Made by a program: the position numbers and the translations under genes. The notes below the pieces were generated by a model. It did no database searches, was not told the origin of the DNA, and was given only the letters and a program-made list of their open reading frames with translations. Positions 4,292-63,493 of a stretch of 64,000 nucleotides of DNA are shown here, one piece after another (the first letter of the stretch is position 1; each line of letters starts with the position of its first letter). The stretch is from Terriglobia bacterium (GTDB lineage Bacteria > Acidobacteriota > Terriglobia > JAIQFV01), in assembly GCA_020073085.1 (NCBI GenBank), contig JAIQFV010000007.1:120375-184374 (forward strand), given 5' to 3'.

Positions 4292-4927
4292 ATGAACCTT
4301 CCTATTGCACTAACACTCTCGCGAATTTTTCTGGTCCCCGTCGTGGTGGTGGTATTGCTCTCCAGCCGATTCCCGATCTTTCCGGACCTGTACGCCCAGT
4401 ATCAGGAGTTCATCGCGGTCACGCTTTTTCTGGCGGCGGCCATTACCGATTCTCTCGACGGCTATTTTGCGCGGAAGCGGGGCCAAGTCACGACGCTGGG
4501 AATTCTTCTCGATCCCATTGCGGACAAACTCCTGATCTCCGCCGCCCTCATCTCCCTGGTGAAGACGGTCCCGTGGGTCCCCGCCTGGTTGGTGGTATTG
4601 ATTATCGGTCGTGAATTTGTCGTGTCCGGCCTTAGGAACATCGCCTCCGCGGAAGGGTTCACGATTGATGCGTCGGAATTGGGGAAGATCAAAATGATCC
4701 TCCAGGTGATCGCGATTACGCTGATCATCATCGGGAGCAAGCACAAGAACTTTGAGCTGTTGGGACGGGTGGCGCTCTATCTGGTGGGGTTCTTTGCCGT
4801 GGTTTCCGCGGTCCAGTATTTCCGCCGGTTCTGGGGCAAAGTGGACAGCAGTATCAAGGAGCGTCAGCGTCGTCGCCGCTCGATCCTGCTTCGCCGAAAG
4901 ATGAGACGGGATGTGGAAGTTAAGTAA
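4292..4927 (+). CDS. pgsA: CDP-diacylglycerol--glycerol-3-phosphate 3-phosphatidyltransferase
   Basis: CDP-alcohol phosphatidyltransferase motif DSLDGYFARKRGQVTTLGILLDPIADKLL. The protein is multi-TM. Confidence 0.9.
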   Translation: MNLPIALTLSRIFLVPVVVVVLLSSRFPIFPDLYAQYQEFIAVTLFLAAAITDSLDGYFARKRGQVTTLGILLDPIADKLLISAALISLVKTVPWVPAWLVVLIIGREFVVSGLRNIASAEGFTIDASELGKIKMILQVIAITLIIIGSKHKNFELLGRVALYLVGFFAVVSAVQYFRRFWGKVDSSIKERQRRRRSILLRRKMRRDVEVK

Positions 4928-5471
4928 CGAAGATCAGGCTTTTCTGCTCAGGCTCGCGCGGAAGACGATTTCCGACCATCTTCACAATCAGCCCCTGTCC
5001 CCTCCCGAACCGCTCCCCGTCGGTCCCCTGCTCGAGAAGTGTGGTGCCTTTGTGACCCTGACCCAGCATAACGAGCTCCGCGGGTGCATCGGTTACACCG
5101 CTGCTCTGAAACCGCTCTTCGAGACGGTCATGGATTGTGCCATTTCCGCAGCCACCCGTGATCCGCGGTTCGTCCCGTTGAAGGCGGAGGACCTTGCGCG
5201 CACCCACATTGAGATTTCAGTGCTTTCACCCATGTTTGAGGTCAAGGACGTGAATGAAATTGAGGCGGGAAAGCACGGTCTTATGATTTCACGAGGCAAC
5301 CGGCGGGGCCTGCTCCTCCCGCAGGTCGCTACTGAATACAACCTCAACCGGGAGAAATTCCTGGACCAGACTTGCATGAAAGCAGGACTGCCTCCGAAGT
5401 CCTGGAAGGAGCCCGGGACACGCATCGAGGCGTTCACCGCGTTCGTATTCGGTGAACCCGGAATAGAATAA
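4911..5471 (+). CDS. AMMECR1 domain protein
   Basis: Contains the LRGCIGY motif and DPRFVPL. The ATG at 4911 overlaps the pgsA end by 17 nt. Confidence 0.85.
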   Translation: MWKLSNEDQAFLLRLARKTISDHLHNQPLSPPEPLPVGPLLEKCGAFVTLTQHNELRGCIGYTAALKPLFETVMDCAISAATRDPRFVPLKAEDLARTHIEISVLSPMFEVKDVNEIEAGKHGLMISRGNRRGLLLPQVATEYNLNREKFLDQTCMKAGLPPKSWKEPGTRIEAFTAFVFGEPGIE

Positions 5472-19075: not shown

Positions 19076-20173
19076 GTGGACAACGGGTCGGAAAGGAAGC
19101 CTGGTGTGATGGCCGCGGTTGAAGCGCGATGGTGGACCCCTCTCAACGACCATAAGGTCGTCTGCACCTTGTGTCCCCGCTCCTGCAAGATCGGGGACAA
19201 TCAAGCCGGTTTTTGCTACATCCGCCGGAACGAAGGAGGGAGACTGCTCACCCTCGGCTATGGTCAACCCGCTGCGATCCATGTGGATCCAATTGAGAAG
19301 AAGCCCCTTAATCACTTCTTGCCCGGGACCCAGATCTTCTCCATGGGAACGGCGGGGTGTAACATGGGATGCTTTTTTTGCCAGAATTGGAATATCTCAA
19401 AAGCCAGATCCGACCAGGTGAACTCCTCCCTGCTGTCCGCGGAGGCCGTCGTGGAGTCCGCCCTGTACAGCGGCTGTTCATCCCTCGCGTTTACTTACAA
19501 CGAACCGACCATCTGGGCGGAGTATGTGATTGACATCGCCAAGGTCGCGCGCGAGCATGGCTTGAAAACAGTGATGGTGACCAATGGATACATCTCGCCC
19601 GAGGCGTTTGACGAGGTTTACCAGTGGATCGATGCGGCCAATGTGGACTTGAAAGCCTTCACAGAGCATTTTTACTCCCATCTCACCCTGACGCATCTCA
19701 ACCCCGTCCTGGAGACCCTGAAGCGGTTGAAACAGGACACATCGGTGTGGTTCGAGATCACCAACCTCATGATTCCCACGCTCAATGATTCTGAGGATGA
19801 AACGAAGAAGCTGGCAGACTGGATTCTGGAGAACCTGGGCGACCATGTGCCGCTGCATTTCACCGCATTCCATCCGGACTTCAAGCTGCGGGACAGACCC
19901 CGAACCCCTCATAGCACGCTCCATCGCGCCCGCCACCTGGCGATGGAGCGGGGGATGAAGTTCGTGTACGAGGGCAACGTCATGTGCGAGGAATCTCACA
20001 CTACGTATTGCCCACATTGTCGGAAGGCCTTGATTCGGCGCTCGTGGCACGATCTGAAGGCGTATGAGCTGACCCCTGAAGGGGCCTGCCGATACTGTGG
20101 GACCCAGATCCCCGGTCATTTCTCTCGAATCACAAGAGCGAGGAGGGCGACTTCTCGATTTGATGTCCAGTAA
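19076..20173 (+). CDS. AmmeMemoRadiSam-system radical SAM enzyme (PFL-activase-like)
   Basis: CNMGCFFC (CX3CX2C) plus an N-terminal Cys cluster (CTLCPRSCKI...FCYIR). GTG start at 19076, with an alternative ATG at 19109. Confidence 0.85.
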   Translation: MDNGSERKPGVMAAVEARWWTPLNDHKVVCTLCPRSCKIGDNQAGFCYIRRNEGGRLLTLGYGQPAAIHVDPIEKKPLNHFLPGTQIFSMGTAGCNMGCFFCQNWNISKARSDQVNSSLLSAEAVVESALYSGCSSLAFTYNEPTIWAEYVIDIAKVAREHGLKTVMVTNGYISPEAFDEVYQWIDAANVDLKAFTEHFYSHLTLTHLNPVLETLKRLKQDTSVWFEITNLMIPTLNDSEDETKKLADWILENLGDHVPLHFTAFHPDFKLRDRPRTPHSTLHRARHLAMERGMKFVYEGNVMCEESHTTYCPHCRKALIRRSWHDLKAYELTPEGACRYCGTQIPGHFSRITRARRATSRFDVQ

Positions 20174-32677: not shown

Positions 32678-32707
32678 ATGACAAGAAAGGGAAACGGGGG
32701 ATATAAT
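32678..32707 (+). promoter_or_regulatory. Candidate promoter (ATGACA-N18-TATAAT) for the PDO selenoprotein gene
   Basis: ATGACA lies at 32678..32683 and TATAAT at 32702..32707, about 85 nt upstream of the ATG at 32793. Confidence 0.4.
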
Positions 32708-32792
32708 TGCGGACGAATCACATCTGAGAAACATCCGGGTGGACGACATCCACTGAACGCTCCAGAAACGAACTCAGGAGGGCTTCACCGAT

Positions 32793-33455
32793 ATGTCGAT
32801 GTTAGGTGAGAAGGAACGGGGAATCGTAAGCGAGCAATTTCAAAAGCTCGAGAGCCCTGTGAAGTTGATTCATTTTACCCAGGGCTTGATGTGTGATACA
32901 TGCCCCGAGACCCAGCGGCTCCTTGAAGAAGTAGCATCGCTGTCCGACAAAATCACCCTTGAAGTGCATAACTATGCGATTGAAGGAGATTTGGCGGCGC
33001 AGTATCGGGTGGCCCGTGTCCCTGCGACCGTAGTTCAGACGGAGAAGGATTTTGGAATCCGGCTCTACGGGATGCCTTCGGGTTACGAATTCGTCTCGCT
33101 ACTGAATGCTATCCTGGCCGTATCTCGCTCCACAACCGATTTGACAGAGGAATCCAGGATCCAGCTCCAGTCCATTACCGCTCCCACGCACATTCAGGTG
33201 TTTGTTACGCCCACTTGACCGTACTGCCCCGCGGCCGTGAAGCTCGCGCATGAAATGGCTATCGAGAACGATTTCATCACCTCAGACATGGTGGAAGTGA
33301 ACGAATATCCGGATCTGGTCCGCAGGTATCAGGTTCGAGGAGTTCCAAAAACCGTGGTGAACGATACCGTTGAGTTTGTTGGCGCTCTTCCGGAAGCGGA
33401 GTTTGTCGCGCAGGTCTTGAAGGGCATATCCCCCACCAGCTTGGAAATCAGGTAG
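32793..33455 (+). CDS. Two-domain glutaredoxin-like protein disulfide oxidoreductase, predicted selenoprotein (Sec at TGA 33216..33218)
   Basis: ORFs 32793..33218 and 33237..33455 are in the same frame. Readthrough gives VFVTPT-U-PYCPRAVKLAHEMAIEN, so TGA sits where PDO-type proteins carry the first Cys of CPYC. The first domain keeps CDTC. A hairpin follows the TGA. Confidence 0.8.
33230..33248 (+). promoter_or_regulatory. Candidate SECIS hairpin
   Basis: CGCGG (33230..33234) pairs with UCGCG (33244..33248), including one G-U pair. The loop is CCGUGAAGC. The stem starts 11 nt after the UGA. Confidence 0.5.
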
Positions 33456-56588: not shown

Positions 56589-57026
56589 ATGCTGTCACCC
56601 GGAGAGAAGGCACCTGACTTCACTGTGAAGACCCATGAGGGAAAAGAAGTTTCGTTGAGCCAGTTTGGGGGGAGCAAAGTGGTCCTGTGGTTCTACCCCA
56701 AGGCGGACACCCCCGGTTGAACCAACGAAGGCAAAGGATTCCGTGACCGAATCCGAGAGTACGAAGCAAAAAACGTGAAGATCCTTGGCATCAGCTTTGA
56801 TACGGTCGAAGAGAACGCTGCATTTGCCAGGAAGTTTCAGTTTCCGTTCCCCCTCTTGTGTGACACTGACCGCAAGATCGGCCTGGCGTATGGAGCTTGC
56901 GAATCGCCCCAGGATGTATACGCCAAGCGGATTAGTTACGTGATCGGCGAAGATGGGAAAATTCTTCTGGCCTATCCGAAGGTCGATGCCGCGCGCCATC
57001 CCCAGGAAGTGCTGGAGAAGGTCTAG
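56589..57026 (+). CDS. Bcp/PrxQ-type peroxiredoxin, predicted selenoprotein (Sec at TGA 56718..56720)
   Basis: The ATG at 56589 gives MLSPGEKAPDFTVKTHEGKEVSLSQFGGSKVVLWFYPKADTPG-U-TNEGKGFRD, in frame with ORF 56775..57026. The TGA aligns with the peroxidatic Cys of the FYPKxxTPGCT motif. A hairpin follows. Confidence 0.85.
56736..56754 (+). promoter_or_regulatory. Candidate SECIS hairpin
   Basis: GGAUUC (56736..56741) pairs perfectly with GAAUCC (56749..56754). The loop is CGUGACC. The stem starts 15 nt after the UGA. Confidence 0.55.
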
Positions 57027-57871
57027 TAGAATACCTTTTCGAGGAACAAACCGAACGGGGGCGCTGTCCATTCGGCCGGCTTTGGAGAGGGTTTGTAGAA
57101 GAAAGAACTGAATTCATCCCGGGTGCAATTCCCTGCCCCCAATTCCACCATGCTTCCGACCAGGCGCCGGACCATTTTCCACAGAAATCGATCGGCACGG
57201 ATGTGAAAGGTCAATAGCCGGGCGTAACAGGGCCGCGTAATGCGGATTTCCCGCCATTCACACTCTTCCACAATACATTGGAAGGAACGTTCTTCCTCCT
57301 CATCCGGATCACAAAAAGAGCGGAAACTGTGTCTCCCGACGACAAGTCTTGCGGCCTCCTGGAGGAGGGGGAGTTTGATCTCGCGCCTCGGGCACCAGAC
57401 GTGACGCCGCAGGAAGGGCGAGTAAGTTTCAACGATCTGATAGCGGTAGCTGCGGGAGTGCGCATCATGGCGGGCATGAAAATTCAGAGGAACGAAAGCG
57501 GCCTGAGAGACCGTCAGGTCAGCAGAGAGTCCGTTGTTCAGCTCCCGCATGATCTTCTCCGCTGACCACAGGCGCGGATCTTCCGCGTGATCCCCTGCAT
57601 GAAAGGGGGCTTTCAAAAGCGGGATATCGCGGGAGGCGGTCCTGTCCACCGGAGGATCCCCGTGGATGACCGCATTCACAACCTGCGCCTCGGCGTGAAC
57701 CCCGCGGTCGGTACGTCCCGCCGCAATGATCCGCGGCTTTTCTTTCAGGACATCAATCATTGCCGACAGCAATTGGCCCTGGACCGTGCGAACGTCCTTC
57801 TGGATCTGCCAACCATAGAACCGCGTGCCTTCATAGGCGATCGTGAGCTTCAGGTTTCTCATTGCATGCAA
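57023..57871 (-). CDS. truA: tRNA pseudouridine(38-40) synthase
   Basis: AAGRTDRGVHAEAQV catalytic Asp motif. Its stop overlaps the stop of the convergent peroxiredoxin gene. Confidence 0.9.
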   Translation of the reverse strand: MHAMRNLKLTIAYEGTRFYGWQIQKDVRTVQGQLLSAMIDVLKEKPRIIAAGRTDRGVHAEAQVVNAVIHGDPPVDRTASRDIPLLKAPFHAGDHAEDPRLWSAEKIMRELNNGLSADLTVSQAAFVPLNFHARHDAHSRSYRYQIVETYSPFLRRHVWCPRREIKLPLLQEAARLVVGRHSFRSFCDPDEEEERSFQCIVEECEWREIRITRPCYARLLTFHIRADRFLWKMVRRLVGSMVELGAGNCTRDEFSSFFYKPSPKPAEWTAPPFGLFLEKVFY

Positions 57872-62917: not shown

Positions 62918-63493
62918 TCAAGGAAACTTCGTCACGGCATCCACGACCTGCTGATCCGGCAACAGCTTCCCTTCCACGTTTTCCCAGAGGATTTTCCCGT
63001 CTGTCCCCACTAGAAAGTAAGTCCTCTTGGCCACCACCGAATGGATGCCCGGGACGTTGACTTCCAGTTCAATGTGATAGTCCTTGATCACCTTGCGTTC
63101 CATATCACTCAGCAAGGGAAAAGGCAGACTGAGGCTTGCCTTGAATTTATCCTGGGAAAAGGGCGTATCGGTGCTGATTCCCCACACTTCGATGTTCTTG
63201 GCCTTTAACTTTTCATAGTTCTCTCTGAACCCAGAGAGCTCGGTCGTTCAACCGCCGGTGAAATCGAAAACATAGAAGGCCAAAAGGACCTTTTTCTTGC
63301 CGCGCATGTCACTCAATTTCATTGGAGCGAGTTTGGGTCCCGAGGGGAGGGTAAAGTCCGGAGCTGTGTCCCCCACCTTGGGGGGTTGCACCCCGGCACC
63401 CGCGGGAGGAGAGGTACTTTGAGCTGTCAAGGAAACTGTGCCCATGAGCAGTAGCGCCACAAAAAGGGACAGAACAAGAAACGTTTTATTCAT
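62918..63493 (-). CDS. Signal-peptide-bearing AhpC/TSA-family peroxiredoxin, predicted selenoprotein (Sec at TGA 63248..63250)
   Basis: The ATG at 63493 gives MNKTFLVLSLFVALLLMGTVSLTAQ...KKKVLLAFYVFDFTGG-U-TTELSGFRENYEKLKAKNIEVWGISTD, in frame with ORF 62918..63187. The TGA aligns with the peroxidatic Cys. A near-ideal hairpin follows. Confidence 0.85.
63221..63238 (-). promoter_or_regulatory. Candidate SECIS hairpin
   Basis: On the minus strand, CUCUCUG-GGUU-CAGAGAG forms a perfect 7-bp stem with a GGUU loop. The stem starts 9 nt after the UGA. Confidence 0.65.

Follow-up and report, generated by a model that had tools for sequence, protein, structure and literature searches.

The stretch from 32793 to 33455 on the forward strand of the window (the whole 64,000-nucleotide piece of Terriglobia contig DNA that was analysed) represents, with a probability of about 0.9, one genuine UGA–Sec gene for a selenocysteine-containing protein disulfide oxidoreductase (PDO). 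This reading is based on a Cys/Sec pair, conservation of the TGA, family membership, a hairpin that complies with the bacterial SECIS model, and two peroxiredoxin genes of the window that likewise carry a TGA. The preliminary description of this DNA had predicted a selenoprotein, and the Cys/Sec pair, the conserved TGA and the purifying selection downstream of it all agree with that prediction. The PDO is an unannotated member of a known selenoprotein family in an uncultured Terriglobia lineage; it represents neither a new mechanism nor a new family.

Gene organization and the in-frame TGA

The ORF opens with an ATG at 32793 and runs for 141 codons on the forward strand until the TGA at 33216..33218. 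A Shine-Dalgarno-like AGGAGGG (32776..32782, forward strand) was read from the sequence 10 nt 5′ of the ATG. About 85 nt 5′ of the start codon lies a promoter-like ATGACA-18-TATAAT site (32678..32707, forward strand) matching 11 of 12 consensus positions; it is weak evidence for a promoter, with one such site found and 0.6 expected in shuffled sequences. The same-frame stretch 33219..33455 is parted from the ORF 32793..33218 by the TGA alone, and beyond this codon the frame meets no further stop until the TAG at 33453..33455. Reading through thus gives 220 residues plus the stop, and the earlier statement that two ORFs share one frame with the TGA as their sole interruption is correct. The second ORF returned by the ORF finder begins at a GTG in this frame (33237..33455, 72 aa).

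Around the TGA the read-through sequence is ...HIQVFVTPT-[TGA]-PYCPAAVKLAHEMAIENDF..., and with selenocysteine written in it becomes ...HIQVFVTPT-U-PYCPAAVKLAHEMAIEN... An earlier reading of the residues after the codon as PYCPRAVKL has to be corrected, as the sequence encodes PYCPAAVKL. The in-frame UGA is codon 142, a predicted selenocysteine codon, and it forms the start of the motif U142-P-Y-C145 (33216..33227, forward strand) in the C-terminal thioredoxin-fold unit. The CxxC motif of the N-terminal unit, C34-D-T-C37, is encoded by ordinary Cys codons at 32892..32903 (forward strand), just as the preliminary description had it.

The gene is flanked by a divergent transglutaminase-like/TPR gene on one side and by a convergent radical-SAM gene on the other. 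No partner gene (reductase or AhpC) adjoins it at the locus; the gene stands alone and appears to be monocistronic. Elsewhere in the window, a Pfam match identified an AMMECR1-family gene at 4911..5471, and 14 kb from it a radical-SAM-type ORF (19076..20173) looks, by eye, like an AmmeMemoRadiSam partner.

It had been foreseen that gene callers would split the PDO gene in two, and the public calls indeed give exactly 141 + 72 aa in all assemblies. These calls fit the possibility that the UGA at 33216 is a real stop, in which case the gene would produce a 141-residue single-domain fragment and the C-terminal piece would be either untranslated or started from the GTG at 33237 as the second half of a split gene. 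The use of TGA as a normal stop in the window is also in line with this explanation. However, the 72-aa piece would then begin 3′ of the CPYC position and would be left without an active site.

Family assignment and the catalytic cysteine column

For the profile search, Sec was modelled as Cys. The protein matched the NCBIfam profile TIGR02187.2 (‘PDO_seleno_TRX, protein disulfide oxidoreductase’) with 264.7 bits against a curated cutoff of 185, and the match covered profile positions 2–208 of 209. This result bears out the earlier assignment to the two-domain PDO family. The score against TIGR03140 was 81 bits, far below the cutoff. The Pfam family Thioredoxin_3 matched the protein in two stretches, and end-to-end sequence alignment to 1A8L, 1J08 and 2YWM points to two tandem thioredoxin-fold units, in a protein whose size agrees with the ~220–230 residues expected of the family. 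At the level of sequence, the window protein has every feature that characterizes the TIGR02187 family.

The PDB entries 1A8L and 1J08 aligned with residues 1–212 (2–212 for 1A8L) at an E-value of ~4e-49, with their CPYC motif falling on the TGA. When 5.8 billion proteins were searched with the PDO sequence, thousands of homologs were found. Among the best 120 of these, the column of the TGA was occupied by Cys in all of the 116 full-length homologs, in the near-invariant context VFVTPT-C-PYCP, and the alignment therefore confirmed a Cys column at this position. The remaining four were 141-residue products ending in ...VFVTPT. A CxxC motif (CQYC, CELC, CDTC and others) was present within the first 80 residues in 120 of 120, the four shortened products included. 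Since U-P-Y-C aligns on the C-P-Y-C of PfPDO and of the homologs, the redox-active motif with which the first helix of the second unit begins, the TGA had been placed correctly at the nucleophilic Cys of CPYC.

Conservation of the TGA codon

An identical 141-aa product is encoded by 23 contigs, which derive from at least 10 independent samples or assemblies. Three other clusters of the 141-aa type showed 89, 87 and 80% identity to the 141-residue product of the window. One of them came from an NCBI Acidobacteriia MAG, and all three have the gene neighbourhood and the 141 + 72 aa split in common with the window. In DNA sequence, each of the three differed from the window at 92–112 of 663 positions (14–17%). 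The TGA at codon 142 was kept, and no indels had occurred, in four of four lineages (the window and the three others).

Pairwise dN/dS values among the four lineages were 0.05–0.37 downstream of the TGA and 0.07–0.15 upstream of it. In the 18 nt that extend from the TGA to the GTG of the second ORF, only synonymous changes were seen (CCG/CCA/CCC and TAC/TAT), and the frame remained PYCPAA throughout. Because this segment varies only synonymously, it is evidently translated. The TGA was also kept in L074, a Terriglobia MAG whose protein has 76% identity.

We scanned GTDB, with one genome per species, for the pattern ACN CCN ACN TGA CCN TAY TGY CC (TPT-TGA-PYCP). The results showed at least 118 loci that are PDO homologs with a TGA, and in at least 102 species TPT-TGA-PYCP was located in a near full-length two-domain PDO, with 70–80 conserved codons following the TGA. 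The hosts of these TGA forms belong to the Chloroflexota, the Acidobacteriota (including the Terriglobia MAG with 76% identity), the Methylomirabilota, the Bacillota (Sulfobacillus and Alicyclobacillus), the Ignavibacteria and others. The proposal that the TGA is biologically meaningful gains from its retention in four lineages, from its presence in no fewer than 102 further species and from the purifying selection 3′ of it.

These data bear on two of the alternative explanations. An error in sequencing or assembly, or a recent nonsense mutation that turned the gene into a pseudogene, would require no more than a one-base event (TGC or TGT to TGA). Against this stand the occurrence of the same product on the 23 contigs, the presence of the TGA in four diverged lineages with purifying selection 3′ of it and no indels, and its presence in L074 and the GTDB loci. 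Such conservation across samples and lineages effectively refutes the error or pseudogene reading of TGA 33216. As to a real stop at this codon, the segment between the TGA and the GTG stays in frame with synonymous changes only, the dN/dS downstream matches that upstream, and in more than 100 species the TGA coincides precisely with the column of the catalytic Cys. We thus consider the chance that the UGA terminates a single-domain protein to be minimal, and take it as a recoded codon within one gene.

The hairpin downstream of the TGA

RNAfold predicted a SECIS-like hairpin at 33230..33248 (forward strand), beginning 11 nt after the TGA. Its outer pairs are 33230–33248, 33231–33247, 33232–33246 and 33233–33245, and its inner pairs are 33234–33243 and 33235–33242; U33244 is bulged, and the loop, CGUGAA, spans 33236..33241. 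Numbered from the U of the UGA, the GU of this hairpin occupies nt 22–23. The preliminary description of the hairpin was therefore right as to its presence, its distance from the TGA and the location of the GU, but the 9-nt loop that it gave, CCGUGAAGC, is not the preferred one, since RNAfold favours CGUGAA.

The bSECIS model (quoted in PMC13188914) calls for a loop of 3–9 nt, a stem of 4–16 bp, a minimum free energy of ≤ −7.5 kcal/mol, and a G followed by G/U within the first two loop positions, at 16–37 nt from the UGA. We applied our own simplified implementation of these published constraints. The PDO hairpin passed, with the loop CGUGAA, a spacing of 17 nt, six pairs plus one bulge, and −10.4 kcal/mol. 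For comparison, 7.2% of the 2325 TGA triplets in the window passed as well. Within this background, the geometry expected of a bacterial SECIS element is present at the PDO site.

Across the four lineages, the 23 nt from 33225 to 33247 (seven consecutive codons) were invariant, synonymous sites included, with gene-wide third-position conservation in the same lineages at 49%. The hairpin stem was intact in L074 too. In a 31-nt window the hairpin had −7.4 kcal/mol, a modest value that ranks within the top 15% for windows of this gene. When compared with synonymous-codon shuffles, it showed no greater stability (fraction 0.43–0.52), and when the 60 nt following the UGA were folded, the result was not better than for dinucleotide shuffles (z = +1.2). 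The GU in the hairpin belongs to a conserved Val codon, and 87% of the Cys forms likewise contain it. The site thus has a model-compliant hairpin, but its case for a SECIS element is weaker than the preliminary description had suggested, as the folding energy does not exceed that of the synonymous shuffles and the GU coincides with the conserved Val codon.

At the level of the family, 105 TGA forms were compared with 100 Cys forms encoding the same motif. The TGA forms had a peak of stability right after the codon that was absent in the Cys forms (mean −10.1 compared with −6.4 kcal/mol). The within-gene z after the codon was −1.57 for TGA forms and −0.73 for Cys forms (Mann–Whitney P = 3e-9). 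Thus, TGA forms are clearly more structured after the codon than Cys forms.

The hairpins of the TGA forms (alignment nt 15–33 after the UGA) fell into several classes, including CGUGNN loops on the stems CGAGC/GCUCG, CAAGC/GCUUG or CGGGC/GCCUG, and a GGCCAGGUUGGCC class. In some TGA-form PDOs the register was shifted and the loop was a 5-nt CGUGC; in others a GGCC-AGGUU-GGCC hairpin lay a few nucleotides further in the 3′ direction. The bulged version seen in the window was found in Terriglobia relatives only. In the fixed-register helix 15–20/27–32, neither a covariation analysis of 108 TGA forms nor RNAalifold gave anything significant; single-register covariation is absent since the TGA forms use no fewer than three different hairpin registers or classes. 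A search of the whole window against Rfam at gathering thresholds gave no match, and this has no weight either way for a bacterial SECIS element.

Other TGA-containing genes and the use of the codon in the window

Two further genes of the window have a TGA at a catalytic Cys. One encodes a peroxiredoxin of the BCP/PrxQ type (56589..57026, forward strand), with the TGA 56718..56720 at the peroxidatic Cys (FYPKADTPG-U-TNE). The other encodes a secreted Prx-like protein with a signal peptide (62918..63493, reverse strand), with the TGA 63250..63248 at the peroxidatic Cys (FYVFDFTGG-U-TTE). Both align across the TGA to solved peroxiredoxins, and they are predicted to be the second and the third selenoprotein of the window, respectively. 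In public gene calls the BCP/PrxQ gene is split into 43 + 83 aa and the Prx-like gene into 81 + 89 aa. A 158-aa ORF on the opposite strand of the BCP/PrxQ gene (56595..57071) is probably spurious.

The hairpin of the BCP/PrxQ gene, GGAUUC-CCGUGAC-GAAUCC, had −7.1 kcal/mol and a G at loop position 3, and it narrowly failed the simplified bSECIS model. The Prx-like gene had a 7-bp hairpin with the loop GGUU, which passed. In synonymous-codon shuffles, the BCP/PrxQ site was not significant and the Prx-like site was marginal (0.08).

Among the best 120 homologs of the Prx-like protein, the catalytic column contained Cys in 107 and W in 13 (P0121–P0123 and 10 others), and the homolog search returned no close shortened relatives. 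In one locus from another metagenome (L260, 214–798), whose protein has 45% identity to the Prx-like protein, the codon behind the W proved to be TGA; evidently, the gene caller of its source had used a table in which TGA is Trp. Sec genes are concealed in public protein collections, where they appear as Trp variants.

Ordinary stops in the window are most often TGA, which ends 11 of the 23 long ORFs. The code is therefore not globally reassigned. When long same-frame ORF pairs were judged by eye, in-frame TGAs were noticed only at the catalytic Cys of thiol oxidoreductases.

A non-canonical tRNA/SelB system might conceivably decode the UGAs. In one alternative the codon would be recoded to something other than Sec, either to Cys by a tRNASec-like tRNACys of the selC*/SelB* type or to Trp or Gly under a different code. 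In some anaerobes selC* tRNACys species act as opal suppressors, and odd allo-tRNAs occur in Acidobacteria (PMC5389517); furthermore, JGI callers gave W for the TGA in the 13 homologs of the Prx-like protein mentioned above. On the other hand, selC* has been reported in Firmicutes, Thermodesulfobacteria, Nitrospirae and Proteobacteria and not in Acidobacteria (PMC5389517), and a global reassignment is ruled out by the ordinary TGA stops. The W calls are an artefact of the translation table, as L260 has TGA, and the restriction of the in-frame TGAs to the catalytic Cys of thiol oxidoreductases is a signature of Sec. Recoding to an amino acid other than Sec therefore has a small chance of being correct, and insertion of selenocysteine is the reading that we prefer.

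Selenocysteine machinery

The window and all loci were searched by tblastn with E. coli SelA, SelB and SelD, and ARAGORN was run on the same sequences. The window plus ~10 kb of flank on each side, together ~84 kb of the 221-kb contig, yielded no selA, selB, selD or tRNA-Sec. ARAGORN detected no tRNA in the window. That this organism decodes UGA as Sec nevertheless has strong indirect support from the two peroxiredoxin genes with TGA at the catalytic Cys.

The sole machinery matches came from two Chloroflexota, an Anaerolineaceae MAG (L044, 4394..5716) and a Leptolinea MAG (L073, 5496..6722). In both, a selA homolog with 41–45% identity to E. coli SelA lies ~4–5 kb from the TGA-form PDO. A separate observation concerns the right-hand flank of the window, where a 329-aa Pyr_redox_2 protein with the size of a thioredoxin reductase is encoded ~7.6 kb past the edge (L263, 19401..20390). 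This protein is a possible reductant of the PDO, from which it is unlinked at a distance of ~38 kb.

Proposed mode of action and significance

The PDO is composed of two tandem thioredoxin folds, the first with CDTC and the second with U142-P-Y-C145. In the proposed scheme, when the ribosome meets the UGA at 33216, the hairpin with the loop CGUGAA would recruit SelB-GTP-Sec-tRNASec, and Sec would be inserted in place of termination. The insertion, its dependence on SelB, the reductant and the substrates are inferred. In the finished protein, the selenolate of U142 would act as the nucleophile on a substrate disulfide, and C145 would resolve the mixed selenenylsulfide. We assign these roles on account of the known behaviour of the PDO family and of UxxC thioredoxin-fold selenoproteins.

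In the archaeal and Aquifex PDO systems, regeneration is carried out by a flavoprotein of the thioredoxin-reductase type. In the window protein, the Se–S bond would presumably be re-reduced by a reductant of this type, possibly via the N-terminal CDTC.

The value of the finding lies mainly in annotation. In the NCBI MAG record, the 141-aa piece is entered as ‘thioredoxin family protein’, with a 72-aa fragment beside it. All three TGA genes are split in public calls (L001–L017 and L263–L265), which means that the redox enzymes of this lineage are systematically under-called. The scan also indicates that the Sec form of TIGR02187 is common across the Chloroflexota, Acidobacteriota, Methylomirabilota and Bacillota.

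With three Sec genes in 64 kb, it might be asked whether this uncultured Terriglobia lineage has an unusually dense selenoproteome of thiol oxidoreductases. We regard this as doubtful, yet if it were true, the use of Sec in soil Acidobacteriota would be far wider than the approximately three genes of the cultured representative suggest.

Comparison with known systems

The Sec form of TIGR02187 (UxxC) is listed as a selenoprotein family (PMC9312934, PMC13188914, PMC1794560) and has been catalogued since 2004. In the table of a 2026 review it is placed under ‘predicted with high confidence’ (PMC13188914). It was first described in Carboxydothermus hydrogenoformans (prototype ABB15282.1), and later in Symbiobacterium (S. 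thermophilum) and Asgard archaea. Selenoproteins have also been reported in Acidobacteria (PMC1794560, Table 2; Occallatibacter riparius, PMC12013277, Table 2).

The window protein has the HMM family and the UxxC in the second thioredoxin-fold unit in common with the Sec-PDOs of Carboxydothermus and Symbiobacterium, a likeness drawn via the HMM family and the motif. The hosts differ, being a thermophilic Firmicute and Symbiobacterium in the known cases and an uncultured member of the Terriglobia here. As regards the RNA element, the hairpin of the window is a bulged variant of the CGUGNN-loop hairpin that is commonest among the other TGA forms.

The PDOs of P. furiosus and P. horikoshii (1A8L, 1J08), Aquifex aeolicus (2AYT, 2YWM) and Aeropyrum pernix (2HLS) aligned with the window protein over the full length, with E-values from 4e-49 to 1.5e-25. 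They resemble the window protein in having a pair of thioredoxin-fold units, with CxxC in the N-terminal and xPYC in the C-terminal one. Unlike it, they are Cys proteins (CPYC) from hyperthermophiles, whereas in the window protein Sec replaces the first Cys. The window protein also lacks a short insertion that the solved PDOs have after the active-site helix.

The N-terminal domain of AhpF (1HYU, 1ZYN, 4O5Q) is likewise a double thioredoxin fold, homologous to the window protein (E ~1e-10), and its redox-active CxxC belongs to the second unit. AhpF, however, serves AhpC and joins this domain to a ~300-residue flavoprotein reductase, whereas the window gene is free-standing. Finally, bacterial Sec-containing Trx, Grx and Prx proteins, such as the Trx of Treponema denticola, also have Sec in place of the nucleophilic Cys and an intragenic hairpin after the UGA (PMC13188914). 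These proteins differ from the PDO in being single-domain members of other Pfam families, and two such peroxiredoxins are present as separate genes in the window.
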